Shown one piece after another: positions 33,118 through 62,654 of a DNA stretch of 64,000 nucleotides. Within the stretch, counting starts at the first letter, position 1, and each line of letters opens with the position of its first letter. The stretch is from a virus (lineage: Duplodnaviria; Caudoviricetes). The stretch covers positions 44,447 through 108,446 of the IMG/VR virus record IMGVR_UViG_3300033121_001676; one strand, given 5' to 3'. The position numbers were made by a program, and so were the translations under genes. The notes beneath the pieces are model-generated. The model saw nothing but the letters and a program-made list of their open reading frames with translations. It made no database searches and was not told where the DNA came from.

Positions 33118-33123
33118 CTTCTT

Positions 33124-42793: not shown

Positions 42794-43551
42794 AATCTTC
42801 AGGTGTTGGTCATGTTGTTTTAGTGAGTGGTGGTGCAGATTCTGCAACAGTTCTTGCGATGGCGAATGAACTTTACCAAGAAGAATTGAAATCTGGTATT
42901 GATAGCCATCTTGTAACTTTTCATTGCAACTATGGTCAAAGAACTGAATTGAGAGAGTTGACATCTTATAACAGAATTTGTGATCACTATTCAATCAAGG
43001 CAGAAGATAGATATATTATTGATATTGGTTATTTGACAAGAATTGGTGGAAGTTGCTTGACTGATAAGAAAATAAGTGTCCCAAAAGATGCTGAAGCATT
43101 GAAGAAAAAGATTGTACCAGTTTCTTATGTACCTTGCAGGAATCTTAATTTGCTTGCAATTGCATCTTCAATTGCAGCGGTTAAGGGATCAAGCAACATC
43201 TGGATTGGTGTTGTTGAACAGGACTCTTCAGGATATCCTGATTGTCGTGGTGAATTTATTGATAATGCAAACCATGCAATTAATTGCGGTCTTCCGGATG
43301 GACATGATGTGGTTATTGATGCTCCTCTTCTTACGATGAAGAAGAGTGACATCATTGCTGCTGGAATCAAACTTCAGGTGCCTTATCACATGACTTGGTC
43401 TTGTTATGAGGATAATTTTACGGCTTGTGGTGAATGTGACTCTTGCAGACTTCGTATTCTGAGTTTTGAAAAGAATGGCATTTGTGATCCGATCAACTAT
43501 AACAGACCGTGGAACGAGATTGTTGATTTTGTTAAGGGATTCAAAGAATGA
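42790..43551 (+). CDS. queC: 7-cyano-7-deazaguanine synthase
   Basis: SGGADS; YGQR; VPCRN; YPDCR; TWSCY; CGECDSC. Confidence 0.96.
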   Translation: MKSSGVGHVVLVSGGADSATVLAMANELYQEELKSGIDSHLVTFHCNYGQRTELRELTSYNRICDHYSIKAEDRYIIDIGYLTRIGGSCLTDKKISVPKDAEALKKKIVPVSYVPCRNLNLLAIASSIAAVKGSSNIWIGVVEQDSSGYPDCRGEFIDNANHAINCGLPDGHDVVIDAPLLTMKKSDIIAAGIKLQVPYHMTWSCYEDNFTACGECDSCRLRILSFEKNGICDPINYNRPWNEIVDFVKGFKE

Positions 43552-43781
43552 TATGCGAAAAGCATAAAGTTCAATTCAAAGACCATTGCGAAGAATGTAA
43601 GAGAAATTATTTGATTGATTCTGCAACAGAATTTGAAAAAATCCGTAATGAAATTCTATTCAAACAAAGATGGTTTTGGAATGATCCAGAAGTAGTCAAT
43701 AATCCTGTGACCTATCAACACTCTACAGGGTCATATACTTTCACATTCTCTGGAGGTAATCAAAACAATGGTGCCTTCTGA
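43548..43781 (+). CDS. Small protein with a MICxxHxxQ..HCxxC N-terminus
   Basis: Coupled to queC; possibly a distant relative of the MIC family. Confidence 0.5.
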   Translation: MICEKHKVQFKDHCEECKRNYLIDSATEFEKIRNEILFKQRWFWNDPEVVNNPVTYQHSTGSYTFTFSGGNQNNGAF

Positions 43782-46606: not shown

Positions 46607-46668
46607 AGGTGCGCGCTCAATGTTTGGGCGCATAGTGTGCAATTGGCAGCAACACAAGGAATGCAACA

Positions 46669-47064
46669 ATGAGTCCTGCAAAGGGTGGCGGTGGTCGGAT
46701 GGGCAAGGGGCCGAAGAAGGCCACGAAGACCTCGAAGCCGAACGTGACTTCGGTCGCGGAGGGCAGCGTCTTCATCTGCAAGATGGGCGAAACTCCCATC
46801 GAGGTGAAGGACGTTTCGGCCGGGACCAGGATGGTGGACGTGCTCCGCCGTGCCGTGTTCCCGCCGGGCGTGATCAAGGGCCGTGGTGGGCGTGACATCA
46901 GCAACGTCATCGAGGCCGCCGAGGCCGACGTTGCTGCCGGGCGCATCGGCAACATCGGGCAGGCGTTCAACACTGTGCGCGTGAACGCGCAGCCCGCGAC
47001 CCTCGAGACGCTCATCAACCCCGGGGACCAGATTTCGCTGATTCCCAACATCACCGGCGGCTGA
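46669..47064 (+). CDS. Ubiquitin-like beta-grasp protein (ThiS/MoaD-like) with C-terminal GG
   Basis: VRVNAQPATLETLINPGDQISLIPNITGG*; K/G-rich N-tail; GC-rich codons; AAGGA SD. Confidence 0.88.
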   Translation: MSPAKGGGGRMGKGPKKATKTSKPNVTSVAEGSVFICKMGETPIEVKDVSAGTRMVDVLRRAVFPPGVIKGRGGRDISNVIEAAEADVAAGRIGNIGQAFNTVRVNAQPATLETLINPGDQISLIPNITGG

Positions 47065-47069
47065 GAACC

Positions 47070-47111
47070 AAAAAATACCCGGCACCTTTCTGGTGTCGGG
47101 TATTTTTTTTT
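47070..47111 (+). terminator. Intrinsic terminator between Ubl and E2
   Basis: aaaaaatacccggcacc-tttct-ggtgtcgggtatttttttttt. Confidence 0.85.
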
Positions 47112-47123
47112 GGAGCAAATGGA

Positions 47124-48515
47124 ATGAGCACTGCAATTACCGGATTCACCAAAACAACATTCCAGGGTAAACTTCCCGAGGATTGTTCTTCATTTGCCCC
47201 AATGCTCAATGGTGAGTTGCGTGAAGAGTTCGAAACAGCTCTCAGTGGAATGGCTGTTGAGTTCAAGAGAAATCTGGAAATTGTTGGAACTTCTCATTAC
47301 CCGCAATTTTTCAAAGAAGATGATCCAATTATCGCATTGAGGAAGCCAAAGACAATCTTCATCCACCCGTTCTCATTGCCAGATGGCAGCACACCTGAAT
47401 TCAAGGAACTTTCGGAAGAGCTTGTTGTTACCAAGAAGAAGTATAAGCTTCGCGGACTTCAAAGGGACGCGATGGTTTATAGCGGTCCGAAGATTGTCGG
47501 ATTCCTCATGCTTTCTGGTGACAAAGTTGGTGATTCAAAAGGTGATGTGCTTACGCTTTTTCATGCACACCACATCTACTTCGTTGCTGATTTCTTCGAT
47601 ATGTCCGGTGGTGAGTGGGAAACACTTACTCCCGAAGACAAGATTGCTACTGCTCGTGAATCCTTCGAAATGATCCTGGATATTCTTGAGATTTCGATCA
47701 AGTGTATGCAGGAAAAGTTCAAACTGGATGATTTCGAAGCTCTTGAATCACAGAGGATCGAGAAAATAAAGAATTCTTGGGTTGCAAATTATCCGAAATT
47801 GGTTGAATTGAAGAATAAGGGACTTAAAGATACCTATCTTGCAGAAAGAGATAGGTTAGTGACAATGGAAGAAGAGTATCGTGTTGCTTGTGACAATTAC
47901 CAGAATGCGAAGAGAAATTATGATGATGCTGTGTTGAATTCTGGTTCCATTGCAGCGGTTTCAAATGACAGAATGTTTGCTGGTTTGATGAATAGTTTCT
48001 ATGAATCGATTGATATTGATACTTCTGCGAAGTGTATTGTGGCATTGACAAAGATGATCTTTATTCGTGAATCTGGAAGAATTTACGCAATTGGACAGAT
48101 CAAAATCAGAATTCCGCTTGAAACAAGTGCGTCTATTGTTGCTGAAAACATTGCCCCAATGACTATTTCTGGTGAAAGGATTCACCACCCACACATCAAC
48201 GGGAGTGGTGGAATTTGTCTCGGCAACACGCACAGTGTTGTTTCTGATTTGAGGAAGAAAGGAAGTATCCTTGAACTGCTTGAACTGTTGGGCAGTTTCA
48301 TGTTTTCATATAATGTGAAGAGCGTCTTCACAAAGATCACTGTGTTTAAGGATGTTACTGAACAATTCAGTGAAGAAGAGATTGCTTACGATAATGATCA
48401 AAACAGAGAAGAGAAGAGTGCGGCAAATGCCGAACAGCTGATCAATGTTTTGAGAAGAGCGGCTGCACCAGCTCCAGTAACAGCTATTCCTCCAGTTGAG
48501 ACGGGAGGTGTTTGA
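47124..48515 (+). CDS. E2/UBC-like conjugating enzyme with N-terminal domain and coiled coil
   Basis: HPHINGSGGICLGN (UBC HPN...ICL signature; Cys codon 48216). Confidence 0.75.
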   Translation: MSTAITGFTKTTFQGKLPEDCSSFAPMLNGELREEFETALSGMAVEFKRNLEIVGTSHYPQFFKEDDPIIALRKPKTIFIHPFSLPDGSTPEFKELSEELVVTKKKYKLRGLQRDAMVYSGPKIVGFLMLSGDKVGDSKGDVLTLFHAHHIYFVADFFDMSGGEWETLTPEDKIATARESFEMILDILEISIKCMQEKFKLDDFEALESQRIEKIKNSWVANYPKLVELKNKGLKDTYLAERDRLVTMEEEYRVACDNYQNAKRNYDDAVLNSGSIAAVSNDRMFAGLMNSFYESIDIDTSAKCIVALTKMIFIRESGRIYAIGQIKIRIPLETSASIVAENIAPMTISGERIHHPHINGSGGICLGNTHSVVSDLRKKGSILELLELLGSFMFSYNVKSVFTKITVFKDVTEQFSEEEIAYDNDQNREEKSAANAEQLINVLRRAAAPAPVTAIPPVETGGV

Positions 48516-48516
48516 A

Positions 48517-50532
48517 ATGGGTCGTAGCAAAATGAGAAAGAGGTCTCGTTCCGGTTTTGTTTCAAATACATCCTACAGCCACAAAATTCCTGAAAACATT
48601 CCGTTCACGCCAAGAATTCGAAGAGCAATTAGCGTTCCGAGCAATCGGAATTTGAACGAAAAAGGTCTTCGTGTATATATTCCTCTCAGGGTGTATCAGA
48701 AGATGCTTGCTTTGACCATGGTTGCGACTTCGGAAACGAGCGCAATGGGCGTCGTTCACTTGGAAAAAGATGGTGAACGCACGACATTTGGTCAAGAAAT
48801 TTGGGTAGATGACATTCATTACGTTCATAACACTTCAAGCTCTGCTTCGACAACCCTTGATGCTGGAGATCTTTCAAGATTGCAAATTGAATTGATGCAA
48901 TCTGGCATTGATTTGCTTGGATTCAGATTGTGGTTTCACACGCACTACAATTTCAATGTTTTCTGGTCTGGCACTGATAAGAATACAGCTATCAATGTGC
49001 TTGAAAACTCACGTTGGACGTTGAGTATTGTGATGAACCAGAAGCAAGAACTTCTGGCTCGCGTTGATAAGTACCGTCCAACGCATGTTGAATATGATAA
49101 TGTTCCAATCTATATTGTTAATGATGTTCGCAAATCGCAATGGGATCTTTGGTGTGAAGAGGCAAAATCAAAGATCAATACCAGTGTGATTGACACTTCA
49201 AACAAGATACTTTCAAAAGAGTTTGAAGAGTACATGCGTTCTCAAGGAATGGTTGTTGATAATACTGATGTGAAAAAGGTTGAGAGTGAGGTTGAAGTTG
49301 TTGCTGATCCGTTTGGCATTCCACAAGATAATCGTCCTACTGGCGGGAATATCCTTTATCTTCCTGGCAGTGAGGTGAGTGATGAAGAAAATGAACTTCT
49401 TGCTCATTTCGGAATTGTGGAAGATACAATTGGTCTGATTGAAAATGAAGTTGAGCCTCCAGAAGTTGAAGATACACAAGATACTGAAGTTGATGGAGAA
49501 AAGACATACTTTGAATATTCATGCAGTTGTGGTAATGAAATGCTTGTTGATAATGATGATTTGAAATTCCGGTGTTCTGGTTGTAAGCAATTGTTCGTGA
49601 ACAATGATGCTGTTCAAAGAAAAGAGATTGAAAACCAGAAGAAGAAAGAGTCTGTTGTTGTAAAAGTTGCGAATCCTGCCGCAGATGGTGACGAGTTGTA
49701 TAATTTCGCGATTAGGGTCAAAAAATTCTTGCTTGAAACACCAGCACATCTGGATGATTTCATTGGTGTCACTAACAAAGATATTATTCCACCAGAAAAG
49801 AGCGATTGTGAAAATTATATCGCTACTGTGTTGGAGAGTTTTACGATTACGAAAGAGCCAGAATTGATTGCTCGTAGTGATTTCTATAAGAGAAAGGTTG
49901 ATGATGAACTGAGGTTCTTTGGATCGTATGGAATTTTCAGGATGTATTATTCCAGGAAGACAAAGAAGATCCTTGCTTGCAGAGAACACCCGACAATTGA
50001 TACTACGATTAACATTCCATTCAAATCATTCATTAGTGGTGAGATGGTTAAGGAATGTTGTATTCCTGTTTTGAATAAAAATGGTGTATTGACTATACGG
50101 AGTCTCGCGTGCTCGGATCGATCTGATGATCTTAGATACTACTATAATGTGATTAAAAAGTCATTCTTTTACAATTTCCTTCCTACGATCAAAGATGAAA
50201 GAACGGAATGCCCGAATACCGTTCCAATTGAAACACTCCCAAATAATGATCTGAAAAAGATCATTACCAGTGCGTTGAAATTTGTTGGTGAAAAAGAAAA
50301 AACGATTCGACTTGAACAGAGATCGAATCGAAATGGAATGTCTGTTGATACTGGTAGGGATACCAGACCATCACAAAGCTATATTTCTGGTGGAACTTAC
50401 AAACGTGATGATTATATCTACCATGGTGGATACTATGGTGGGAATTATCAAGGTGGCTACTACAACAGGGAACGTGATGAGCTCGAACGTGTGTTCTTGA
50501 GGCTTGATCCGGAAAACATCAGCAACGATTGA
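48517..50532 (+). CDS. JAB/MPN+ isopeptidase, multidomain
   Basis: E(SETS)...WFHTHYNFNVFWSGTD (E-xn-HxH-x7-S-x2-D); acidic linker; CSC..CSGC ribbon; GGGAGG SD. Confidence 0.85.
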   Translation: MGRSKMRKRSRSGFVSNTSYSHKIPENIPFTPRIRRAISVPSNRNLNEKGLRVYIPLRVYQKMLALTMVATSETSAMGVVHLEKDGERTTFGQEIWVDDIHYVHNTSSSASTTLDAGDLSRLQIELMQSGIDLLGFRLWFHTHYNFNVFWSGTDKNTAINVLENSRWTLSIVMNQKQELLARVDKYRPTHVEYDNVPIYIVNDVRKSQWDLWCEEAKSKINTSVIDTSNKILSKEFEEYMRSQGMVVDNTDVKKVESEVEVVADPFGIPQDNRPTGGNILYLPGSEVSDEENELLAHFGIVEDTIGLIENEVEPPEVEDTQDTEVDGEKTYFEYSCSCGNEMLVDNDDLKFRCSGCKQLFVNNDAVQRKEIENQKKKESVVVKVANPAADGDELYNFAIRVKKFLLETPAHLDDFIGVTNKDIIPPEKSDCENYIATVLESFTITKEPELIARSDFYKRKVDDELRFFGSYGIFRMYYSRKTKKILACREHPTIDTTINIPFKSFISGEMVKECCIPVLNKNGVLTIRSLACSDRSDDLRYYYNVIKKSFFYNFLPTIKDERTECPNTVPIETLPNNDLKKIITSALKFVGEKEKTIRLEQRSNRNGMSVDTGRDTRPSQSYISGGTYKRDDYIYHGGYYGGNYQGGYYNRERDELERVFLRLDPENISND

Positions 50533-50539
50533 GGACAAG

Positions 50540-51247
50540 ATGGGCATTGTCGAACGTGATGAACAGTTCATGCGCCAGAAGGATTTCCTCCCTCACAACC
50601 TTTGGGATGATGTGAGGATCCACTTCGTTGGTGTTGGTGGTATCGGGAGTGCAGCAGCTTTTGTTCTTGGCAAGATCGGTGCAAGGAAGATCAACCTCTA
50701 CGACCCAGATACCATTGAACGCCACAACATCTCGAACCAGATGCTCAGTGCAACGGAAGACAAGATTGGTCTTCCGAAGGTTGCAGATCTTGGCGGCATT
50801 CTTCTCGATCTTTGCAATGATGAAATTGATGTGAAGGCGTATAAGAGAAAGGTTGATGAACAACTTGGTTTTGTTTTTGAACAAGGTGAACGCAACATCG
50901 TAATCTGTGGCCCTGACAACATGAAGACACGCAAGTTCGTCTGGGAACTTGTCAAGGGCAACGAAAATGTCATTTGCTATATTGATGGAAGAATGGCGAC
51001 GAGAATCTTCAAGCTTTATAGCATTGACCCGAATGATGCAGAATCTTACGAATCTTACGAAAAGACACTGCACAGTGATGAGGATGCCGAACCACTCCCT
51101 TGCAGTGATCGATCTGTGTTCCACACAAATATGATTCTTGCAAGTACCATTGCAGAGATGGTGCGCAGATTCATTACTCCTGATTCTGCGCCGTACCACC
51201 AAGAGATCTTGTTTGACCTCATCAACCTTGGATGGATAATTGACTAA
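50540..51247 (+). CDS. E1/ThiF-family adenylating enzyme
   Basis: RQ; GVGGIGS; DPDTIERHNISNQ; PKV; DN..R; DGRM; candidate catalytic Cys in PLPC (51101). Confidence 0.92.
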   Translation: MGIVERDEQFMRQKDFLPHNLWDDVRIHFVGVGGIGSAAAFVLGKIGARKINLYDPDTIERHNISNQMLSATEDKIGLPKVADLGGILLDLCNDEIDVKAYKRKVDEQLGFVFEQGERNIVICGPDNMKTRKFVWELVKGNENVICYIDGRMATRIFKLYSIDPNDAESYESYEKTLHSDEDAEPLPCSDRSVFHTNMILASTIAEMVRRFITPDSAPYHQEILFDLINLGWIID

Positions 51248-51867
51248 TGATTTGTAGAAAGTGTGCGATTCAATACAGTGGTACACATGTTTGCAATTTC
51301 AAACTCGGAGATTTCAAAGTTTTCAAGAGAATCCGCAATACTGAATTTGTAATAGTTGCAGAATATGGTAGATTTCCACTTTTTCCAATGAATGGTCATA
51401 CTTATAATGATTTGATTTCTCGTGATCAACAATTGATTCATTTCAAAAGTTCGATAATTATCGATGATTTTGCAATCAAAATTAAAAGTGATCCTTTTGC
51501 AAATGCTATATTGTTCAAAAAGAAAACTGCTACAGTTGATTTGAATAGTGTTGCTGAAATAAGAGAAATTGATGCAGCAATTTATTCAAGTGAGATTCCA
51601 GAAGTTTATCCAAAAATCCAAGAACTTTCTCGGATTTTTGATAAATTTGGACTCAATCATAGCTCACGTGCGAGGATGCCAAATTTTCTCAGTAGCATTG
51701 GTGATTTTGATTCTGTGAATTATCATCCAACTGTTGATTATAAGTATATCTTCAAAATTAATGATGATGGCAGCTATAGATTTTACCACATTCCTTTTTC
51801 TATTGTAAATGTTGTTGAATTTGATCCAATTCTTAAAGAAATTCTAAACAAATGTAATCAACGGTAA
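51247..51867 (+). CDS. MICxxC-family protein #1, coupled to E1
   Basis: TAATG overlap; MICRKCAIQYSGTHVC. Confidence 0.7.
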   Translation: MICRKCAIQYSGTHVCNFKLGDFKVFKRIRNTEFVIVAEYGRFPLFPMNGHTYNDLISRDQQLIHFKSSIIIDDFAIKIKSDPFANAILFKKKTATVDLNSVAEIREIDAAIYSSEIPEVYPKIQELSRIFDKFGLNHSSRARMPNFLSSIGDFDSVNYHPTVDYKYIFKINDDGSYRFYHIPFSIVNVVEFDPILKEILNKCNQR

Positions 51868-51915: not shown

Positions 51916-52266
51916 ATGGATATCCCGAACGTTGTGCCACCGGCACCAGTTGATCTTGGGAACGAGGTTCCGAACATTGAGCCAGTTGCGGTTATTCCAA
52001 CCGAAGCTGCGCCAGCAGAAGCGACGGCAGGTACGATTCCTGGTGTCGAAACGCCGCGTCGGCGTGGGCGTCGACCAGGTCTTCCAACTCGCGTTCGTCC
52101 AGAATTCGCGAACTGGGTCCCAACTCAGTACGTGAAGAAGGAACAGCCGTTCACTGCTTTTGATGCAACTCTTGATCGTGAGACGAATGTGATCACGTTT
52201 GTCGCGCGGAATGCCGCAGGCGTTACGACGACTTACAAGATCCGTTGCACAAGCATCAACGGTTGA
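51916..52266 (+). CDS. Hypothetical protein (acidic/Pro N-terminus, AT-hook-like RRGRRP)
   Basis: AAGGAG SD; GC-elevated; followed by a terminator. Confidence 0.65.
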   Translation: MDIPNVVPPAPVDLGNEVPNIEPVAVIPTEAAPAEATAGTIPGVETPRRRGRRPGLPTRVRPEFANWVPTQYVKKEQPFTAFDATLDRETNVITFVARNAAGVTTTYKIRCTSING

Positions 52267-52270
52267 AGAA

Positions 52271-52309
52271 AATTGGCGTCGCAATCCATATTGACGACGC
52301 CAATTCTTT
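52271..52309 (+). terminator. Intrinsic terminator
   Basis: aattggcgtcg...cgacgccaattcttt. Confidence 0.7.
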
Positions 52310-52463
52310 GATTGAATTTCATTAGAAAGCTTTATCTAAGGCTTTGTCAAGGCCAGTTTGCAGGTTAGTATGTTGCTACCTAAGTTTTGTATCAGCTACT
52401 GTGCTGCCATCCCATTAAAGCATCAGCCAATGTTCTACATTAGCTTACTGTGTATACTGTGGT

Positions 52464-52673
52464 ATGCAAAACGTGACGCCAGCGCAAGCAACGGTTCAAA
52501 ACTCAAATGAGCAACGTGATTCAATCGAACTTACCTGTGATGGAAAGGGGGCGTACAAGTACGTCCACAAGGTCTACTTCGACGGAACAAGTGATGCAGA
52601 ATATTCAAGAGCAACCTCCCGCCTCGCAAGATGGGACGCAGATTTCAGATCCACATATCGAGGTGGATCCTGA
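52464..52673 (+). CDS. Small hypothetical protein
   Basis: TATACT at 52453, just upstream (near-leaderless). Confidence 0.5.
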   Translation: MQNVTPAQATVQNSNEQRDSIELTCDGKGAYKYVHKVYFDGTSDAEYSRATSRLARWDADFRSTYRGGS

Positions 52674-52980
52674 AGTTTGCAAGCGGCTGCGCCTTGTTGA
52701 TATTGAACTTCCGCACGCTTCCTTCCAGGTAATTTTGGATTTGGATACGATTGAGTGTGTTAAGTCATTGCTCAAGCAAAAAGATTCGTTTTGGGAAATT
52801 TGCGGTTGGACCGCGAAGGACTCAAAGCAAGATGGTGTTGTGCATGTGAGTAGGAAGTTTGACTTCTGCCATGTGCAGCATCCTGTTGGTTTGATGGTTC
52901 ATAATGAATATTCGGTTGTTCCGAATAACCATCACACTGCACAGAAGTTTGGGTTTACTGAGGACGTGAAAAATGCCTAA
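52663..52980 (+). CDS. Hypothetical protein
   Basis: 3' part of ORF 52507..52980; GTG overlapping the upstream stop is the likely start. Confidence 0.45.
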   Translation: MDPEVCKRLRLVDIELPHASFQVILDLDTIECVKSLLKQKDSFWEICGWTAKDSKQDGVVHVSRKFDFCHVQHPVGLMVHNEYSVVPNNHHTAQKFGFTEDVKNA

Positions 52981-53257
52981 TCCGAATCGAAACTACGACG
53001 AGTACGAGAAGCCGGTGGAAGAGAAAATCACCGGCAAGTTCCGGGTGATGGTGCCGAAGATGACTTCGGACTGGTCGCGCAGGGACGAACCGCCGCAGAT
53101 CCGATGGTACCAGTCCGGGGTCGCAACCGAGAAGACCGCCGTGTACGCCGACGGTGGCGTGCAGCGGCGCATCAACATCATCATGAACACCATCCCGATC
53201 GGTCCGTGGGATGGCACGGTGGTCCTGGACGAGCAGGACCAGCCGGACGGCGGCTGA
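52973..53257 (+). CDS. Small beta-rich protein (possible ssDNA-binding type), GC-rich
   Basis: GAGG SD; W..SGVA...INI.MNTIP..PWDG.VVL; followed by a terminator. Confidence 0.6.
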   Translation: MPNPNRNYDEYEKPVEEKITGKFRVMVPKMTSDWSRRDEPPQIRWYQSGVATEKTAVYADGGVQRRINIIMNTIPIGPWDGTVVLDEQDQPDGG

Positions 53258-53282
53258 AAGCCAGCGGTGATCTGAGAAGGGG

Positions 53283-53319
53283 TGGCGCGGCAGTTGAAAA
53301 ACTGTCGCGCCATTTTTTT
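53283..53319 (+). terminator. Intrinsic terminator
   Basis: tggcgcggcagtt-gaaa-aactgtcgcgcca-T7. Confidence 0.85.
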
Positions 53320-53320
53320 G

Positions 53321-53854
53321 ATGAAAAGAATCATCTACACGAAATTTGAAGGTGTATTCACAAAAATCGGTGGTGTGAATGACACTATATTGATTGTCAA
53401 TGATGAGAAGTTTCCTATTAACTATGACAAGAAATCAGTTAACAGATTTAGGAAATTCATTCAGCAGATCAAGAATGGTTGTGAGATTGAAATTGTTTTG
53501 ATTTCACAGTGGAGACATTGTGAAGGATTTATTGAAACATTCTGTGCAACAAACAACCTTCCTGTTTTCAGGTGTTTCCAGAAGGAGTTTGAAAAGACCA
53601 TATGTGAATCTTTAGTCAAAGAGATTTATGATGAAATGAATTCTATTGCAAGTTGGGTTGTTCTTGAAAATAATAAAGAAGATATGAAATTGATGAAAAG
53701 AGAAGATAGAGTTGTATATTGTTTGAATGGATTTGGTGAAAAAGAGGTCAAAAAGATTAGATGTATTCCTGGATTTGGTGAAAAAGAAAAAGTTGAAAGA
53801 GTTGTGAAAAAGAAAATTGAAGAACCAACTTGGGAGAGCATGTACGGGATCTGA
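53321..53854 (+). CDS. Degenerate HAD-domain protein (Swiss-Army-Knife RNA repair HAD-like)
   Basis: IIYTKFEGVF (for FLDxDGVL); IVLISQWR; WVVLEN (for DD). Confidence 0.5.
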   Translation: MKRIIYTKFEGVFTKIGGVNDTILIVNDEKFPINYDKKSVNRFRKFIQQIKNGCEIEIVLISQWRHCEGFIETFCATNNLPVFRCFQKEFEKTICESLVKEIYDEMNSIASWVVLENNKEDMKLMKREDRVVYCLNGFGEKEVKKIRCIPGFGEKEKVERVVKKKIEEPTWESMYGI

Positions 53855-53869
53855 TGAAAAGAAAACTAT

Positions 53870-54027
53870 TTGTCTAACCCGTTGCGCTGGTATAATGCCA
53901 TTGCAAGCAGGTATTCCAAGCCTGCGCAAACTCCAGAACCGCACTGTCCCTTGTCGGGGCAAACCTTCTAAACGCCATGTGATTACAGAGCCGTGTGGTT
54001 TTGGTCATGTGGCGTTTTTTTTTTTTT
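53870..54027 (+). ncRNA. Candidate small RNA with its own promoter and terminator
   Basis: TTGTCT-N15-TATAAT; hairpins gcagg/cctgc and tgtccc/ggggca; terminator 53971-54027 with T13. Confidence 0.5.
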
Positions 54028-54104
54028 CGAATCAACGTAATAACAAACACGGCATGAAGTAAAGTCAAAAAGAACATGAACGTCCTAACTAATGTATAGT
54101 GTGC

Positions 54105-54140
54105 ATGGAGGCGTAAGTCAGTGACTGCGCCTCCATTTTT
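54105..54140 (+). terminator. Hairpin with T-tract
   Basis: atggaggcg...cgcctccat-tttt. Confidence 0.6.
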
Positions 54141-54157
54141 CATAAGTGATTTTTGTC

Positions 54158-54496
54158 ATGGAAAACCCAAACATTGCTGAAGTTAGAGTTGTAAGTGAAA
54201 TCAAGCAGAGCGGTATTGTTTTTGATAGTAAGTATAGACAGATAAAAGAGAATATTGAATCAATTCCAAAGCCGACTGCTGAAGATCATTTCGAATTCAC
54301 TTATGAACGAGCTGTTGGATTTCAGCCACAACAATTCTGCTCGATTAGTCTGAAGGTTGGGATCGTTGGCTCGACGACCAGTGCGTCTTTCAGTGATGCG
54401 ATGAAATTGTCAATCGAGACTGTTGAAATGATTTTGATGACTGAGGCACAGAGGTGTCACAAACAATTCTTTGAGATGATTAGGAACCTTAAGTGA
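54158..54496 (+). CDS. Hypothetical protein
   Basis: ORF between the hairpin and the next promoter. Confidence 0.5.
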   Translation: MENPNIAEVRVVSEIKQSGIVFDSKYRQIKENIESIPKPTAEDHFEFTYERAVGFQPQQFCSISLKVGIVGSTTSASFSDAMKLSIETVEMILMTEAQRCHKQFFEMIRNLK

Positions 54497-54500
54497 AAAC

Positions 54501-54527
54501 TTGTTCTATTGGCTGCGCTGCTATAAT
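54501..54527 (+). promoter_or_regulatory. Promoter TTGTTC-N15-TATAAT
   Basis: TGcTATAAT; recurrent motif. Confidence 0.65.
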
Positions 54528-54571
54528 TTCCATGCACAAAGTAGCGCAAACCATGCAACGAGGAGTCACAC

Positions 54572-55123
54572 ATGGACAATGAGCTCGAAATCCCCACGGT
54601 GCTGCCGGTGGCCGAAGCCACCGAAGCCGTGGTGGAGCGTGTGGAGCCGGTGATCACCGCAGTCGGTGAAGTTGCGGAATCCCGCACGGTCGCCATTCCC
54701 ACCATCAACACCAAGAGTGCCGGAGCCAAGTGGCTCTACATGCACTCCGCCCCCACCAGCTTCGGTGTCGGTGGCGTGCGCGCGAATCATCGCGCCATGA
54801 TCATCAACGAATCCACTCCCGGGTTCACTCTCCAGGTGGCCGTCATCAATCCCGATGGCACGGTCAACCAGAAGGAGAGCAGGGAGTGGACCTGCAATCT
54901 TCCGGTGACCAGGACCGACACCGTCCTCGATGGAGCGTGGACGGACGCCCAGGCTCGTTCCAAGGTCGCCCCGCAGACGCTCGACACCTCCAAGTTCGTT
55001 CGAGCGATCCTGTACGCCGGAGATGCGCAACATCCTCCGGTGGTCGCGTTCGAAGATGCCAGTGGTGGACGCAAGCTCTATCGCCTGAGCTACGCCTGCG
55101 ACCACAATGGCCGCATCATCTGA
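54572..55123 (+). CDS. Hypothetical protein, GC-rich monocistronic unit
   Basis: GAGGAG SD; high GC3; own promoter and terminator. Confidence 0.75.
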   Translation: MDNELEIPTVLPVAEATEAVVERVEPVITAVGEVAESRTVAIPTINTKSAGAKWLYMHSAPTSFGVGGVRANHRAMIINESTPGFTLQVAVINPDGTVNQKESREWTCNLPVTRTDTVLDGAWTDAQARSKVAPQTLDTSKFVRAILYAGDAQHPPVVAFEDASGGRKLYRLSYACDHNGRII

Positions 55124-55150
55124 ACAAGGAAGCACCGTCCCAAAAGGACT

Positions 55151-55190
55151 AAAGACCGGCACGGAAAGACAAATCCGTGCCGGTCTTTTT
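55151..55190 (+). terminator. Intrinsic terminator
   Basis: aaagaccggcacgga...tccgtgccggtcttttt. Confidence 0.85.
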
Positions 55191-55197
55191 ATTTCAC

Positions 55198-55584
55198 ATG
55201 ATTTGCGTCAATTGCAGAATACAATATAGAACTCCAGAACATATTTGTGAAAATTCTTATTATGATGGTAGTTTTCTACCACAAAAAGTTCTTTCAATAT
55301 GTGATATGCACGTTACTCAAATGCAGACATATAGAATTGTTTTGCGTGATTATCCCTTTGTTTCTTTTTTCTATTCAATGTTACTGATATCTAAAAGCGA
55401 GATTAGGAGAATTACTGGTGGTTGTCCAAGCAATTGTTTTTCTCATGGAAGACAACTTAATTCATATGAGATGGCTGGTTTGTGTAAGAAATTGTTTGAT
55501 AGAGAACCAAGAAGTTCATTCATTGGTGAGCGTCTTGATTTGATTATCGATGATGCAAAGAAATTTCTGGATTCTTTGAAATGA
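55198..55584 (+). CDS. MICxxC-family paralogue #2
   Basis: MICVNCRIQYRTPEHIC. Confidence 0.7.
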   Translation: MICVNCRIQYRTPEHICENSYYDGSFLPQKVLSICDMHVTQMQTYRIVLRDYPFVSFFYSMLLISKSEIRRITGGCPSNCFSHGRQLNSYEMAGLCKKLFDREPRSSFIGERLDLIIDDAKKFLDSLK

Positions 55585-55931
55585 TTTGCACAAAATGTCA
55601 ATCTCAATTTAGTGGTGAGCACGATTGTACATTCATCTTTCTTGGTTTCAAACTCAAAAAGATACCATTTTTGAAGTTGTGTCAATGGCATTACGATAAT
55701 AGAAGAACACTTACTTCTGTTCAAGCATTCATTGCTATTGCAGATCATCTCAAAATTCCTTTCGAAATATTGAAAGATGATCCACCAAGATGTGTTGGAA
55801 CTCAATGTATTTGTTCAAAAAATACAGGATCAACTTCTTCATTTAAGAACGTATTTGGGATTGATGATGTTGACTCGTTCTTTGAAGTATTTCTTGATTA
55901 CAAGAACAGAATGGAAGAACAAGAAATATGA
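55581..55931 (+). CDS. MICxxC-family paralogue #3
   Basis: MICTKCQSQFSGEHDC. Confidence 0.7.
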   Translation: MICTKCQSQFSGEHDCTFIFLGFKLKKIPFLKLCQWHYDNRRTLTSVQAFIAIADHLKIPFEILKDDPPRCVGTQCICSKNTGSTSSFKNVFGIDDVDSFFEVFLDYKNRMEEQEI

Positions 55932-56353
55932 TTTGCACAAAATGTAAGACTCAGCATAGCGGATCAAAGATACATACTTGCCGTGTTGATCTATTTGGGA
56001 TCAAACTCCGAACTCATAATTTCAAATTCTGTAGATCATGTTTTGATTATATTGTGAAAAATGCGTTAATCTACGGACCAAAAAACCATTATCTTGATAT
56101 TGAATACTGCGTCTTCATTTCTTGTGTTTTTGCTTCATCAAGCACTATTGAAATCTTAGAAAAACCACATGATAAACAGTGTCATCTTAATAATGGATCT
56201 CGTAGTGGCAGGACTGAGATTTATAATGAAATAATTATGAAGTATTTTTCTGAAATCAACATCATTTATTTCAGAGACAAAAATAGGATGCCTGTTTTCA
56301 TAGAAACTTCACATAGGTATTTGAAAGAAAAGTATGATTTGCACCCTATGTAG
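55928..56353 (+). CDS. MICxxC-family paralogue #4
   Basis: MICTKCKTQHSGSKIHTC. Confidence 0.7.
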   Translation: MICTKCKTQHSGSKIHTCRVDLFGIKLRTHNFKFCRSCFDYIVKNALIYGPKNHYLDIEYCVFISCVFASSSTIEILEKPHDKQCHLNNGSRSGRTEIYNEIIMKYFSEINIIYFRDKNRMPVFIETSHRYLKEKYDLHPM

Positions 56354-56711
56354 AATTCAGTATTTTGGATCACACACTTGCAAGATGAGACTATTTGGAA
56401 TCGATCTAGACAAACAAACGATTCATATTTGCAAACATTGTCTAAGATCACTCAAACCTAATGCAAAACCTAACGGAAACGAATCTGATGTTTTGCTTAC
56501 TTGTATCTACAGTAGCTTAAGTGATGTTGTTATTTTTGATGATGAATGTACATCAGATTGTTTCATCAACTATCATGGTAGTGTGAATGAATTGGTTTTG
56601 TTATTTTTCAGAGAAATTGACAATATCAATTGGTATTCAAACAGAAAACTTCTCAACAAATATGCGAATGATTGTTGGGAAGAAAATAAAGTCAAGTGGG
56701 GTGTTGGATGA
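56334..56711 (+). CDS. MICxxC-family paralogue #5
   Basis: MICTLCRIQYFGSHTC. Confidence 0.7.
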   Translation: MICTLCRIQYFGSHTCKMRLFGIDLDKQTIHICKHCLRSLKPNAKPNGNESDVLLTCIYSSLSDVVIFDDECTSDCFINYHGSVNELVLLFFREIDNINWYSNRKLLNKYANDCWEENKVKWGVG

Positions 56712-57073
56712 TTTGCAAGAATTGTAGAGTTCAATATAGTGGTTCACATGAATGCGAACCAAATGTAGTCTTCTATATTTGTGATCAGTGTTATAAGGGA
56801 AAGACTTCTCAATATGAAAGAGATCCTGCATTCAAAGCTTTCATTAAAGAATTGAAAGTCAAAATTAAGGTTGTGAAGAATAGTGCAAAATTTGTGAAAT
56901 CTCCACGATTGACATGTTATTGTGATTCAATTCATCAAATTGTTTTGGACATTGTAAATGGAAAACAAAAGATTGCTGAAAGATATTTACAACTTGCTAA
57001 TGATCCAGAACTTACAGAAAGAATAAATGAATCGACTGAATTGATCATTGATTCTTCTGAGGTTGACAAATGA
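56708..57073 (+). CDS. MICxxC-family paralogue #6
   Basis: MICKNCRVQYSGSHEC. Confidence 0.7.
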   Translation: MICKNCRVQYSGSHECEPNVVFYICDQCYKGKTSQYERDPAFKAFIKELKVKIKVVKNSAKFVKSPRLTCYCDSIHQIVLDIVNGKQKIAERYLQLANDPELTERINESTELIIDSSEVDK

Positions 57074-57429
57074 TTTGTAACAAATGTCAAATTCAATATA
57101 GTGGCTCACATGAATGTGGATCTGGTCTCATTTATTATGTTTGTCCTGATTGTTACATTTTTCTCAACTCAAGAACCATAGCCTTTAGAGCATTTCTTAA
57201 AAAGATGAGAGTCACAATTAAGGTCAAAAAAGAAATCTCACATTCACTTGATTTTCCTGGAAAAAGTTGCGCTTCTGGAATAAGTACGAAAGATCAAGTT
57301 GTAGAAATCGCAAATGGAAATGAACGAATCATTGCAGAATACAAGAAATTTTTAGATGATTTTAATTTGGCAGATGTAGTTGACAAAACACTTTGTTATG
57401 TTGTTGATTCAACTGAGATTGACAAATGA
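57070..57429 (+). CDS. MICxxC-family paralogue #7
   Basis: MICNKCQIQYSGSHEC. Confidence 0.7.
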   Translation: MICNKCQIQYSGSHECGSGLIYYVCPDCYIFLNSRTIAFRAFLKKMRVTIKVKKEISHSLDFPGKSCASGISTKDQVVEIANGNERIIAEYKKFLDDFNLADVVDKTLCYVVDSTEIDK

Positions 57430-57782
57430 TTTGCACAAGTTGTAGAGTTCAACACAATGGAGTGAATCATACTTGCTACATTGATCTTAAATTAGTCATC
57501 TGTAAGGAAAAATCTATCAAAATTTGTTCAAATCATCTTAGAATAAATCGTCATATTTATCCAAAACGCATTCTTTTCGCTTGTTTTGAAATCAGCGGTT
57601 GTGAAATTACTGTAGTTCCAGCTTGTGTTGATGGTTGTGTTTATTATGTGAAAAATAACAGTTCTGAAATTCTTTTGAAAGAACTATTTTATGATATTTA
57701 TGAACATTCCAGAAAAGATATGGGAAAGCTTGCTGGTTTCTTGCATCCCTACTATGTAAAATTCATTGAAAAGCACAGATAA
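57426..57782 (+). CDS. MICxxC-family paralogue #8
   Basis: MICTSCRVQHNGVNHTC. Confidence 0.7.
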   Translation: MICTSCRVQHNGVNHTCYIDLKLVICKEKSIKICSNHLRINRHIYPKRILFACFEISGCEITVVPACVDGCVYYVKNNSSEILLKELFYDIYEHSRKDMGKLAGFLHPYYVKFIEKHR

Positions 57783-57784
57783 AA

Positions 57785-58108
57785 ATGATTTGCAAAACTT
57801 GTCAGGTTCAACATAATGGATCACATAAGTGCCAAGAACAGCATTATTTCTATTCTTGCCCTGAATGCTATCGTCAATTTAAGAAAAGAGGATTGCACAC
57901 TACACTTAGAGCAATACTCAAAGAAGTCAGGGCAGTTATTGTTTTAGATCATACTTATCATAAACTTGCAGAATTAGGTTATTGGACATGTATTTCTTCG
58001 TTGAACTACCCAAGTGATAAAATAAGAAAGCGTTGTTTAGAGATCAACAATGATTACCAGCTCATTAAGAAGATCAATGATGAATTAGAGTTTGTGTTTA
58101 AGGAGTGA
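57785..58108 (+). CDS. MICxxC-family paralogue #9
   Basis: MICKTCQVQHNGSHKC. Confidence 0.7.
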   Translation: MICKTCQVQHNGSHKCQEQHYFYSCPECYRQFKKRGLHTTLRAILKEVRAVIVLDHTYHKLAELGYWTCISSLNYPSDKIRKRCLEINNDYQLIKKINDELEFVFKE

Positions 58109-58114
58109 GATGAA

Positions 58115-58489
58115 ATGATTTGCAAAACTTGTCAAATTCAGTATTCTAATACAAATCACAAATGTTGTCCTGATCTAGAATTGATTCATTGCAAAGTTGA
58201 TAGTATCTCAATCTGTAATGTACATCTCTTATCTAATCATACTTGTTTGGAAAAAGTTGTTCTTTTTGCACTTCTTCAAATAAGTTGTTGCAAAGTCATC
58301 AAACTCCAAACATGCAATCGTGATTGTATCTATCATGTGAGAACTGGTAAATCTTCATACAACCTACTCTATTCTTATTTTGAAAGATACCAGAGTAATT
58401 TAATGACTTTTTCTTCAAGCAAATATGTTGATAGAGTTCAAGATCTTATAAAATATTTCACAGCATTCGTTTCAAAGCATAAGGATTGA
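58115..58489 (+). CDS. MICxxC-family paralogue #10
   Basis: MICKTCQIQYSNTNHKC. Confidence 0.7.
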   Translation: MICKTCQIQYSNTNHKCCPDLELIHCKVDSISICNVHLLSNHTCLEKVVLFALLQISCCKVIKLQTCNRDCIYHVRTGKSSYNLLYSYFERYQSNLMTFSSSKYVDRVQDLIKYFTAFVSKHKD

Positions 58490-58494
58490 GTAGA

Positions 58495-58878
58495 ATGATT
58501 TGCAAAACGTGTCAAATTCAGCACAACGCTACAAATCACGTTTGTTTCTTCATTTATGAAGGAATAAAAATCAAGAAAATTGATACGATTTCTATTTGTC
58601 CTCTTCACCTTAATTCCGAATCAATCTGCTTCACTGTTGCATTTGGAATTTTGATGTTGCAGAAGACAAATGTTCAAAAAGCCAATGCAAATAACATGTG
58701 CCAAATCTGTCGTCGAAATTCTGAAAGACTCAATGATTTTCTTACATGGAAGGGGGTTTATGAATTCTATGAAAGTTTCTTTGGAATCAAAGAAAGAGAT
58801 TATGGTATACTGGTGCCATTGAATGATATTCAGAAAAACTCAAAAGAATTTAGGAAACTTTATGGAACCAACCATTAA
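58495..58878 (+). CDS. MICxxC-family paralogue #11
   Basis: MICKTCQIQHNATNHVC. Confidence 0.7.
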   Translation: MICKTCQIQHNATNHVCFFIYEGIKIKKIDTISICPLHLNSESICFTVAFGILMLQKTNVQKANANNMCQICRRNSERLNDFLTWKGVYEFYESFFGIKERDYGILVPLNDIQKNSKEFRKLYGTNH

Positions 58879-58882: not shown

Positions 58883-58909
58883 GTGTTCACCATTGCATTG
58901 TGCTAAAAT
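58883..58909 (+). promoter_or_regulatory. Promoter GTGTTC-N15-TAAAAT
   Basis: TGcTAAAAT; recurrent motif. Confidence 0.5.
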
Positions 58910-58931
58910 GCCACCATGCAAGGGGGTGGTC

Positions 58932-59213
58932 ATGCCGTCTAACAAGGTGCTTCGCGCAACACAGCGTTACGCCGATCGATTTCAGCGTGCAGATGAGATC
59001 GATTCCGAAACAGAGCGGCGTTATTCAAACAAGCCGAAACCGAAGAGGTTGCGTAAGCAGATCGAAATGTCCAGGAGGGGTGGTTCGATCCAGGAGATGC
59101 GCAGCCAGCGCACAATGCTCTTGGGCTACGGCAAGCCTGAAGATGTCAAGGAGGCTGACAGGATTCAAGAAGAAGTGCTACGTGATCGTCGAATGAAGCA
59201 CAAGGAAAAGTGA
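58932..59213 (+). CDS. Small Arg/Lys-rich protein
   Basis: GGGGGT SD; MPSNKVLR... Confidence 0.6.
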   Translation: MPSNKVLRATQRYADRFQRADEIDSETERRYSNKPKPKRLRKQIEMSRRGGSIQEMRSQRTMLLGYGKPEDVKEADRIQEEVLRDRRMKHKEK

Positions 59214-59395
59214 TGTTAAGATTGATCAATTTGACTTTTGTTGTTGTGTTGATTCTGTGCGGATTTGTTCTTGACATAAGTATCATAATGGATGGTGTGG
59301 AGAAGAATGACAAAAATCTAATTGCAGTCATCGTTTTCCACATGATTGCAAAACTCTATCTGATTACTGCTTTTTTCCGTGCATATGGAAAATGA
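59213..59395 (+). CDS. Small two-TM membrane protein
   Basis: Two hydrophobic segments. Confidence 0.5.
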   Translation: MLRLINLTFVVVLILCGFVLDISIIMDGVEKNDKNLIAVIVFHMIAKLYLITAFFRAYGK

Positions 59396-59612
59396 TCTCA
59401 AGATACTGCGAATGTTTCCATTAACAACTTCTGGGATCGCTAACTTTGACGTCAGATCATCTGATGGCATTAAGTTCTACAGAGTTAGGCTCGGCAATAC
59501 CAATTGGGTCTGTGATTGCCCACAGAACAAATTCAGGAAATTAGAGTGCAAGCATATCTTAGCTGCACAGATTCATTATGGTGAATGGGGATGGATACTC
59601 GATCAAGCGTAG
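59385..59612 (+). CDS. SWIM zinc-finger protein
   Basis: YRV..WVCDCP......CKHI. Confidence 0.75.
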   Translation: MENDLKILRMFPLTTSGIANFDVRSSDGIKFYRVRLGNTNWVCDCPQNKFRKLECKHILAAQIHYGEWGWILDQA

Positions 59613-59948: not shown

Positions 59949-60289
59949 AAATCGCTTGTGAGATGTTTTATTTTCCCGAATACGGGATCACGGTTTACTT
60001 CAAATTCAATAAATCTTCGAAGACCGGCAGGATTCTTTTCGACATCATGACTCAGCATATTGTCGAAAATGAGGCGAGTTATTACATGCTTGCTCTTGCT
60101 TCACTTGTCATTGGAAAAGTGAGGCATATGGAGACAAAAACAACTGTTCTTGAAGACGCATCATTCTTCGTGAGTTCCTACTATGAAGTTCCTGAACAGA
60201 TGGAAAGAGAAGAGGTTGTTGAACTTTTTAAGACAAAGATTAGTTTGATTCTCACGACATTCAGAAAGAGAGTTGCGGAACTAAATTAG
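59936..60289 (+). CDS. Hypothetical protein
   Basis: Overlapping ORF. Confidence 0.55.
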   Translation: MDELKIACEMFYFPEYGITVYFKFNKSSKTGRILFDIMTQHIVENEASYYMLALASLVIGKVRHMETKTTVLEDASFFVSSYYEVPEQMEREEVVELFKTKISLILTTFRKRVAELN

Positions 60290-60295
60290 AAAGCG

Positions 60296-60322
60296 TTGTT
60301 TTGACCAATTGTGCGCTACAAT
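60296..60322 (+). promoter_or_regulatory. Promoter TTGTTT-N15-TACAAT
   Basis: Recurrent motif. Confidence 0.55.
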
Positions 60323-60345
60323 ACGGCAACAAAAGGGTATTTCTC

Positions 60346-60516
60346 ATGCGCAAAATCATCAATTTCCTTTGTGGCTTTTTCAACAAGCTGCTCTCCACCG
60401 TTCAGGCTGTTTATTGCAAGGACAAACACGAAATCAAGGAAGAGGTGGTTGGGTCCAACACTGTTCAATACAAGTGCGGACAGTGCCCGTGGGAACAGAC
60501 CAACAGGATTTACTAA
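60346..60516 (+). CDS. Small Zn-binding protein
   Basis: AGGGT SD; C..H...CGQC. Confidence 0.5.
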   Translation: MRKIINFLCGFFNKLLSTVQAVYCKDKHEIKEEVVGSNTVQYKCGQCPWEQTNRIY

Positions 60517-60800
60517 ACCGCAAGGATTTGCTAATGCAGACCATCAAAAAGTTCTGCCTTTTGGTCGCACCACTTGTCGCGGCCGTTCTCTGCATCCTGT
60601 GTGTTTTCTTAATGGTCCTTGTTTAGGAATTTGATGATGAATGGAAACAACGGCGCAGAAAACAACAACATCGATCCTTGGAAAAAGGACGATGAACGCT
60701 TGTTGAGGTTGGTGGCATTTATTGGAATGGCACCTTTCATCGTGTTCGCAGCCTGCATCCTTGCTACACTGATGGTTGCATTGATTTTAGGAGCTTGAAA

Positions 60801-61391
60801 ATGACTAACCATTGGTCCCATCGACTCGTCAAACTTGGCGCGTGCGAACGTGCTATCAATTGGGCAGTGACGCAACCAAGTCTCGAAGCCGCATGGCAGG
60901 CGTGCGAGCGCGGCGACTGGATGCTCTGTTATGCTGGAAATGTGGCAGGGAAGCCGTGGTCTGAATTCCGCAAACGTCCTGCCATCGCAGCAGCCGAATG
61001 CGCACGGCTTGTTCTACCGATTTACGAGACAAGTCATCCAGGCAATACTGGACCGAGAAGATGCATCGAGGTTGTGGAATCGTGGGCGCGCAATGAAGGT
61101 GCTACGAAAGATGATGTAATGAACTACCGATCAGTAGCTCTTGCTGCTGCTGAATCTGCCGGATCAATGGCTGCTGCTTCAGCTGCCGTTTCAGCATTTG
61201 AATCCGCCACCGTTGCCTACGTTCTCACATCTGTTTCCATATTTATTTCCTCTGCTGTAATTTACGCAGCTTCCGCAGCATGGAATTCTTCTGCAGTTTG
61301 TGATCGAAACAATGCGCGAAAAGCCATGCACAAGCAGTGTGCTGATATTGTGCGGAAGCACTACCCATCACCACCTGGTAACGGCTCATGA
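60801..61391 (+). CDS. Imm5-like Ala-rich helical protein
   Basis: LGAC..A..W; AAECARLVLPIYE...PRRCIE...W; Ala-rich helices. Confidence 0.55.
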   Translation: MTNHWSHRLVKLGACERAINWAVTQPSLEAAWQACERGDWMLCYAGNVAGKPWSEFRKRPAIAAAECARLVLPIYETSHPGNTGPRRCIEVVESWARNEGATKDDVMNYRSVALAAAESAGSMAAASAAVSAFESATVAYVLTSVSIFISSAVIYAASAAWNSSAVCDRNNARKAMHKQCADIVRKHYPSPPGNGS

Positions 61392-61636
61392 TCCGCCACG
61401 CCAAATTTCGCGCTCTTGTGCTTGCGCGACTCAACAACGGTTGGATCGCGGGAAGCGATTTGCGTGAGAAGGTGAACTCATGCCGCCCATGGTGGGGCAA
61501 GGTCTCTGGTCCCTGCTTCTACTTGCACATGGCGTGCATGGTTGATGACAAAGATGTGCTGCGTCACTTAGAAGTACGAATCAACTTCGACGTAAAGGTG
61601 AAGAAGTTCTACTTCAGCTTGAGGAACGAAAATTGA
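61388..61636 (+). CDS. Hypothetical (winged-helix-like) protein
   Basis: Coupled ORF. Confidence 0.45.
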   Translation: MIRHAKFRALVLARLNNGWIAGSDLREKVNSCRPWWGKVSGPCFYLHMACMVDDKDVLRHLEVRINFDVKVKKFYFSLRNEN

Positions 61637-61851
61637 TTCCAATTGGAACTCGAGTAATGATTCATATTTTTGACATAGGTTTTCATCCATCTCTTAGAAA
61701 AGTTCAAGGCAAAATCTCAGGCGTACTTGAACAAGGTGATGGAAGAATCATTTATCAAATTGAGTATTTTGATAATGGACAAAAGTTTGTAACCACTCGT
61801 TTATCATATGACATGATAAACATTGATGAGAAACAAGGGAGTGTTGAATAA
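61633..61851 (+). CDS. Small SH3/KOW-like hypothetical protein
   Basis: IGTRV...G.I..YQIEY. Confidence 0.45.
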   Translation: MIPIGTRVMIHIFDIGFHPSLRKVQGKISGVLEQGDGRIIYQIEYFDNGQKFVTTRLSYDMINIDEKQGSVE

Positions 61852-62264: not shown

Positions 62265-62333
62265 GGAGATTATCAAGATTGATCCAAATGCAATCACTGC
62301 AATAAGAATCAAAGCAGCATTGGAAGAGTTCAA

Positions 62334-62522: not shown

Positions 62523-62654
62523 GTGTAAACGTTTCCTGTTTGAAGGAATTGGTATTATCATATGGATGATCATATGGATGGTATTGTCTGTGATAGAGTG
62601 GCTTCGATATCAATTTTGGAACAAGTGATCTAAATATCCTTTGGAGTTGATCGT

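Follow-up and report, generated by a model that had tools for sequence, protein, structure and literature searches.

In a 64,000-nucleotide stretch of viral DNA (hereafter the window), which forms the last 64 kb of the 108,446-bp IMG/VR virus record IMGVR_UViG_3300033121_001676 (completeness estimate 97%), we found a tandem array of ten small genes at positions 55198-58878 whose products all open with the same short head of cysteines and histidines (the MIC head) and differ strongly from each other beyond it. Judged by comparison with a second phage, the IMG/VR record IMGVR_UViG_3300032138_000003 (G001), this array is a tandem expansion, specific to its lineage, of a new family of phage proteins that are small and soluble. 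The reading that we favour, tentatively, is that the members are fast-evolving accessory, host-takeover or counter-defence effectors which share an N-terminal C2HC zinc handle. The family is known from these two uncultured phages, and comparative tests are limited by that.

A constant head on variable bodies

An initial annotation of this DNA had described ten back-to-back genes of 107-141 amino acids (aa). The listing of open reading frames (ORFs) and a script confirmed all ten on the + strand, which holds almost all ORFs of at least 120 aa in the window. What did not stand were the starts of copies 1, 5 and 10, whose longest ORFs begin at upstream GTG or TTG codons; their true starts are the ATGs at 55198, 56708 and 58495. 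Successive copies share a 4-base ATGA overlap at five junctions and a 20-base overlap at one, and gaps of 2, 6 and 5 bases lie between the others.

The ten array proteins and an eleventh family member, encoded upstream on the same strand (51247..51867), open with M-I-C-x2-C-x2-Q-[YHF]-x3-5-H-x-C, a head of 16-18 residues that always sits at residues 1-18 of the protein. The motif had been proposed as MICxxCxxQ(Y/H/F)x2-5HxC, which holds except for the spacer, of 3-5 residues rather than 2-5. When these 11 sequences are aligned, M1, I2, C3, C6, Q9, H15 and C17 are invariant and C35 and C80 nearly so, and the invariance of M1, C3, C6, Q9 and the H and C of the head persists in a 15-sequence alignment spanning the source phage (39% GC, guanine plus cytosine) and G001 (58% GC). 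Q9 is the sole invariant residue that is not a ligand. Since the head uses synonymous codons interchangeably for its Cys, Gln and His residues (TGC/TGT, CAA/CAG, CAT/CAC), its conservation is that of a protein and not of a DNA signal, and, going by the motif, its recurrence is far in excess of chance.

Moreover, the second CxxC or CxxH that had been reported after the head is present in 10/10 array copies, 8-17 residues further on; the eleventh member does not have it. Array copies contain 7-11 cysteines each, and their putative ligands follow the pattern C-x2-C-x7-9-H-x-C-x8-17-C-x2-[CH]-x30-45-C-x1-3-[CH], although the eighth ligand is not obvious in copies 6 and 8. A 100-aa member from G001 has its cysteines and histidines confined to the four head ligands, and because of this protein and of the eleventh member, which lacks the second C-x2-[CH], the head is most simply predicted to be a self-contained C2HC zinc knuckle (ligands C, C, H, C). 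The extra pairs, C-x2-[CH] and C-x1-3-[CH], would then suffice for a second zinc site in the array copies.

Beyond the head the copies diverge, mean identity within the array being 66% for the head and 24% for the body. Body-only comparison with BLAST and hhalign distinguished three small subfamilies. Subfamily A comprises copy 5 (56708..57073, 121 aa, head MICKNCRVQYSGSHEC), copy 6 (57070..57429, 119 aa, head MICNKCQIQYSGSHEC) and copy 8 (57785..58108, 107 aa, head MICKTCQVQHNGSHKC); subfamily B comprises copy 3 (55928..56353, 141 aa, head MICTKCKTQHSGSKIHTC) and copy 4 (56334..56711, 125 aa, head MICTLCRIQYFGSHTC); and subfamily C comprises copy 2 (55581..55931, 116 aa, head MICTKCQSQFSGEHDC), copy 7 (57426..57782, 118 aa, head MICTSCRVQHNGVNHTC), copy 9 (58115..58489, 124 aa, head MICKTCQIQYSNTNHKC) and copy 10 (58495..58878, 127 aa, head MICKTCQIQHNATNHVC). 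The bodies of copy 1 (55198..55584, 128 aa, head MICVNCRIQYRTPEHIC) and of the eleventh member joined no group, and profile-profile comparison of the body groups gave nothing significant, with a best P of 0.003 for subfamily C against copy 1.

AlphaFold2 models were obtained for copy 6 (mean predicted local distance difference test score, pLDDT, 79; predicted template modelling score, pTM, 0.73) and for copy 9 (pLDDT 75). Both have one order of elements, namely the knuckle, a strand, a helix starting from the C-x2-C/H, a second helix, a strand, a Cys loop and C-terminal helices; the N-terminal knuckle bridges residues 2 and 9, the first helix is short and the Cys loop is poorly ordered. On these two models, the array copies seem to have one common scaffold. 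Foldseek searches of both models against PDB and BFVD returned no match at E <= 0.001 and barely covered the N-terminal 20 residues, and VIA-align against 48,161 chains gave best Z values of 2.6 and 3.9, to unrelated chains. The sequence properties of the family are those of small, soluble proteins. We rejected the idea of membrane proteins, as the members have no long hydrophobic segment and their grand average of hydropathy (GRAVY) is negative.

Origin of the array and spread of the family

The region from the ubiquitin-like protein (Ubl) gene to past the array is collinear between the source phage and G001 (112,303 bp, with terminal repeats). The array lies between two conserved + strand genes, one for a 183-aa protein on its left (54572..55123; 41% identical to the product of G001 L022:17559-18125) and one for a 106-aa protein on its right (58893..59213; 47% identical to that of L022:19327-19602). 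Where the source phage has ten genes, the orthologues of these two flanks in G001 enclose just one with the head, of 145 aa, and the array therefore arose by tandem amplification of one ancestral gene in the lineage of the source phage. Just before the left flank G001 also has a 287-aa gene without a Pfam match (L022:16667-17530, flanked by the counterparts of window 54146-54496 and 54572-55123), which the source phage lacks.

The amplification is old. Even the closest array copies have 31-39% protein identity and about 50% DNA identity, with a synonymous divergence (dS) of 1.3-3.1, which is saturated. We found no pseudogene among the copies, and because they are old and all ten frames are intact, each of them has been kept by selection. 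The same saturation bars a measurement of selection on the head versus the body.

The array is AT-rich, with a GC content of 30-34% against 44-46% in the flanking 2-kb blocks. Composition is a mosaic in the window at large, blocks of 44-50% (46000-48000, 52000-56000 and 60000-64000) alternating with 32-36% elsewhere. A terminator scan found a hairpin on the + strand at 55151..55188 with a perfect 15-bp GC-rich stem, followed by TTTTTATTT; its predicted folding energy is -37.3 kcal/mol (z = -6.3 versus shuffles), and there is no second one in the window. This hairpin, which resembles an intrinsic terminator, stops 10 bases short of the array's first ATG and sets the array apart from the upstream gene at 54572-55123. 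Downstream of the array are genes for a 77-aa SWIM zinc-finger protein (59379-59612; PF04434, E = 2e-5) and for a 198-aa protein with an Imm5-like putative immunity match at the Pfam cut-off (60795-61391; PF21805, 25 bits), neighbours which, as annotated, fit an accessory or conflict region. A search of sequencing runs matched one DNA run, probably of the source sample, and listed no RNA run.

To follow the family outside the array we defined it as proteins of 77-239 aa that have M-x0-1-[IL]-C-x2-[CH]-x2-Q-x4-9-[CH]-x1-2-C at their very N-terminus, a definition that retrieves 12 ORFs in the source phage genome and 5 in G001, the latter beginning MPLC..., MALC..., MPIC... and, in two cases, MIC.... 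The eleventh member (206 aa, head MICRKCAIQYSGTHVC) starts on the last base of the stop codon of an E1 gene (TAATG), as had been claimed, and in G001 the matching position is taken by the 239-aa MPLC... gene, whose ATG lies 10 bases past the E1 stop. Member 12, an addition to the initial annotation that was picked up with the relaxed head pattern, is a + strand gene of 77 aa (43548..43781) with the variant head MICEKHKVQFKDHCEEC. It stands between QueC, whose stop its ATG overlaps (ATGA), and GTP cyclohydrolase I (FolE), and in G001 the MICEKCKTQYVDEHAC gene occupies the corresponding place. The enzyme genes around it, just upstream of the Ubl operon, are QueC at 42790-43551 (PF06508) and a GTP cyclohydrolase I-like ORF with a CAHH motif at 43768-44340; G001 encodes QueC, GTP cyclohydrolase I and a QueF-like protein by Pfam (L017:7878-10301). 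With these genes for 7-deazaguanine synthesis, both phages probably modify their own DNA.

These positional pairs also show how little of the body is retained. The two genes that follow E1 can be aligned over their first 33 residues only (E = 3e-5) and the two between QueC and FolE have MICEK in common and little else, while the genes next to such positional orthologues keep 24-48% identity between the phages. By these alignments, the bodies are changing too fast to be aligned even between positional orthologues. Furthermore, presence and absence of individual members differ between the two phages, with members after QueC, after E1, after the DNA polymerase gene and in the array slot; in G001 a member lies directly behind the polymerase gene, and in the source phage no copy stands behind that gene (18292-20439). 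In its distribution the family behaves like a set of small accessory genes inserted behind core genes.

Such insertion between conserved genes, with presence and absence differing between two phages, would also be expected of nucleic-acid-directed zinc-finger proteins, either small regulators or degenerate selfish genes akin to homing endonucleases. The fingers of HNH and endonuclease VII proteins bear zinc, and the order C-x2-C ... H ... C-x2-C loosely recalls them; moreover, the one weak structural row in the ESM Atlas is an endonuclease VII domain (template modelling score 0.37). However, Pfam and PHROGs gave no match to HNH, endonuclease VII, GIY-YIG or any other nuclease, no DH or N catalytic residues are conserved, and the second C-x2-[CH] finger is absent from both the 77-aa window member and the 100-aa G001 member. 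Homing genes, moreover, are not arranged as ten back-to-back copies, and the net charge of the members spans -11 to +7, a spread that argues against a uniform nucleic-acid binder. We consider this reading unlikely.

The tight coupling to enzyme genes raises a different alternative, that the members are small zinc-binding partner subunits, each suited to the enzyme encoded just upstream (QueC, E1 or DNA polymerase). Their starts do overlap or closely trail the enzyme stops at QueC and E1, and the G001 member behind the polymerase gene is of the same kind. The ten array copies, however, trail a single 183-aa protein and not ten enzymes, and the polymerase gene of the source phage does without a copy, so that we give this alternative hardly any credence.

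Searches for further relatives kept returning to these two genomes. Two degenerate DNA patterns for the head, applied to IMG/VR, gave the one related phage, G001, and four chance ORFs of 16-23 codons; further head patterns gave G001 alone there, and the two patterns had no match in 596 billion bases of prokaryote genomes. A metagenome scan at JGI with a head DNA pattern gave at least 80 loci, with G001 the sole true relative among the matches listed. Most of the in-frame metagenome matches proved to be the zinc region of the PriA helicase, a coincidence of Cys/His spacing without homology; in marine bacteria this region reads MICHHCG.Q[HY]..PHQCP.CG in frame (loci L024-L100). The remaining ones, a few eukaryote-like USP/RING fragments and chance ORFs, are not relatives either.

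At the protein level, scans of the members against Pfam, PHROGs and PADLOC found nothing above noise, and no named PHROG family was matched at E <= 0.01. The family profile returned only self matches in a word-indexed search of 5.8 billion protein clusters and, in an exhaustive HMMER search of 1.84 billion representatives, 11 matches, none from another genome; the 11 fit the lengths of the array and member 11 genes of the source phage, some as shorter gene calls. The G001 members escaped this search because they match the profile by the head alone, with 23 bits when one genome is searched, which is too weak at that size. PDB sequences gave only noise against the profile (fibrinogen, for example), the ESM Atlas gave no usable match, and neither the array nor the E2-like gene of the Ubl operon had a match among 50,697 GenBank phages by blastn and tblastn. 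Word-indexed searches with the E2-like protein and with the left-flank protein returned the source phage only, or the source phage and G001, and searches with JAB, E1, E2 and the left-flank protein brought up no further member of this phage clade.

The ubiquitin-like operon and the role of the head

The E1 gene that member 11 overlaps closes a complete Ubl operon on the + strand (46669..51247) that matched PADLOC models for E1-E2 and BilD. Its first gene encodes the Ubl (46669-47064), which ends in GG. The second encodes a 463-aa protein (47124-48515) with an HPHI-x7-C motif, which we take for an E2, a putative assignment that draws on the motif and on conservation with G001; this protein has no match in Pfam, PHROGs, PADLOC or PDB and one relative, in G001, in the collections searched. 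A 678-aa JAB/MPN protein follows (48496-50532), with the motif H-x-H-x7-S-x2-D and an internal zinc ribbon, whose motif region can be aligned with crAss001 Gp77, and then the ThiF-type E1 itself (50504-51247; ThiF E = 5e-19, PADLOC BilD model E = 1e-6). The operon of G001 is similar by BLASTP, with identities of 48% for the Ubl (which also ends in GG), 27% for the E2, 35% for the JAB protein (57% over its N-terminal domain) and 48% for the E1.

The initial annotation had linked the family to this operon and had proposed that the constant head docks to the conjugation machinery while the variable body selects the substrates. According to this alternative the phage's own Ubl-E2-JAB-E1 system would employ the members as E3-like adaptors or as dedicated substrates, with a head that docks to E2, E1 or Ubl and a body that picks the targets. 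Both genomes that bear the family carry the operon, and a member stands directly behind E1 in each of them, which agrees with the proposal. It is not independent support, however, because the two phages are collinear relatives, and co-occurrence and adjacency together amount to a single observation. Nor is adjacency to E1 specific, since members are coupled as tightly to QueC (in both phages, with the ATGA overlap here) and to the DNA polymerase gene (in G001). In more distant phage E1 operons (three from IMG/VR together with those of crAss001 and cr128_1) the gene after E1 is unrelated and there is no head-bearing ORF. The genes after E1 in crAss001 and cr128_1, considered as possible homologues of member 11, are not similar to it; they are homologous to each other and belong to another conserved family. 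The tie of the family to the Ubl operon is weak.

The proteins themselves offer a similar picture. Among the small Cys/His fingers of eukaryotes are some that bind ubiquitin or E2, which provides a lead for such a role. The cross-brace of RING fingers has the spacing C-x2-C-x9-39-C-x1-3-H-x2-3-C-x2-C-x4-48-C-x2-C, in which ligand pairs 2 and 3 are 2-3 residues apart; in the array this gap is of 8-17 residues, and the RING spacing does not apply. Pfam searches with hmmscan gave no RING, U-box, F-box, BTB or PRANC match for the ten array members (E <= 1) or for member 11 and four G001 members (E <= 0.1), and some members have four head ligands only. Of the initial proposal, then, the architecture of constant, putatively zinc-binding head and variable body stands, but its E3/adaptor part does not find support. 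The role of an E3 is vacant in Bil-type operons, which have no known E3 (10.1101/2023.09.04.556158), a point in favour of adaptors. Weighing both sides, we regard an adaptor or substrate role as unlikely, if slightly less so than the stronger claim that the phage's own Ubl machinery is what the head docks to and all twelve paralogues are specificity factors of E3 type or pre-targeted substrates, acting on host or phage targets. That claim is a long shot; if true, no substrate-adaptor family would have been described before this one for a Ubl system of prokaryotic type, and an arms race would have expanded it. The other possibility raised at the outset, that of independent anti-defence proteins, fits at least as well as the adaptor reading.

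We hypothesise instead that the members are effectors, accessory or active in host takeover or counter-defence, and that they are under pressure to diversify. All of them would dock through the head, as a shared handle, to one constant, postulated partner or place, which may be the Ubl machinery, the virion, a host hub or nucleic acid, and the target would differ from copy to copy with the variable body. The genes stand singly behind core genes and have been amplified tenfold at a single conserved slot. Several points weigh against this effector reading. The partner of the head is postulated only, and zinc binding is predicted from the ligand pattern. Pfam, PHROGs, PADLOC, HMMER, Foldseek and VIA-align yielded neither a homologue of known role nor a matching fold. 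With two genomes and saturated dS, positive selection is inseparable from relaxed constraint. At the same time, the strong terminator-like hairpin lies just ahead of the array and leaves no room for a promoter, so that expression of the array is left unexplained.

Elsewhere in the window are a transfer-messenger RNA gene (tag ending ...RLALVA) and genes for tRNA-Arg(tct), tRNA-Thr(tgt) and tRNA-Pro(tgg), at 32741-33118, 29065-29214 and 32533-32606. An ORF of 1676 aa at 249-5279, open to the window start, matched nothing in Pfam and, at E <= 1e-5, nothing in PHROGs.

Comparison with known systems

No relative of the family was detectable among about 15 billion predicted proteins, and yet twelve intact copies have been kept over a long time, with an invariant Cys/His start on bodies that change beyond recognition. 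Viruses build effector repertoires through families of this type, with one handle and many bodies. The identity of the partner of the handle would expose either a targeting route that is new or a point on which phage-host conflict centres, and would also test whether a phage ubiquitin-like system has specificity factors of this kind. The small size of the proteins (about 120 aa) suits heterologous biochemistry and structural work.

Three known kinds of system invite comparison. The internal proteins of T-even phages (IPI, IPII and IPIII among others) keep only a conserved N-terminal targeting sequence on diverse anti-restriction proteins (PMC3012670), and the array resembles them in its short constant N-terminal motif, its unrelated, fast-evolving small bodies and its plastic locus. 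The bodies of the internal proteins are specific counter-defence factors; the likeness is one of logic only, with no sequence relation. Taken literally, it would make the MIC-head proteins virion-packaged internal or ejected proteins, in which the head would serve as the signal for packaging or targeting and the bodies would be injected to counter restriction or other defences. The strictly N-terminal position of the constant part and the small, soluble nature of the members agree with this. However, the head has no similarity to the T4 capsid targeting sequence, which is an unstructured peptide of about 10 residues removed by the prohead protease, while the constant part here is a predicted Cys/His knuckle of 16-18 residues, and a folded zinc knuckle would be an unusual targeting peptide. 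Moreover, the members are located among replication and accessory genes, away from the head genes, and they also sit inside enzyme operons, unlike the T-even internal proteins. Packaging is, in our view, rather improbable.

The E3 and adaptor families of large eukaryotic viruses (RING/U-box E3s and the F-box, BTB and ankyrin-PRANC families) likewise combine a constant small module with a variable recognition part and are multiplied within a genome, and, like RING fingers, the array copies offer as many as four pairs of Cys/His ligands, eight in all. Unlike these families, the MIC-head proteins match none of the profiles, their spacing is neither C3HC4 nor C3H2C3 and in some members the ligands number four only. 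In the case of the Bil-type BilABCD operons and the Gp79-Gp75 block of crAss001, the likeness concerns the neighbouring operon and not the array. This operon has the GG-ended Ubl, the ThiF E1, the JAB motif and the E2-like HPH...C motif in common with Bil-type systems, and its gene order is that of crAss001 Gp79-Gp76; the known Bil-type systems have no such zinc-headed family. By its sequence the family is new, and it is without a recognised fold; the kind of system that it represents, in which the members of a viral multigene family join a constant module to variable bodies, is known.

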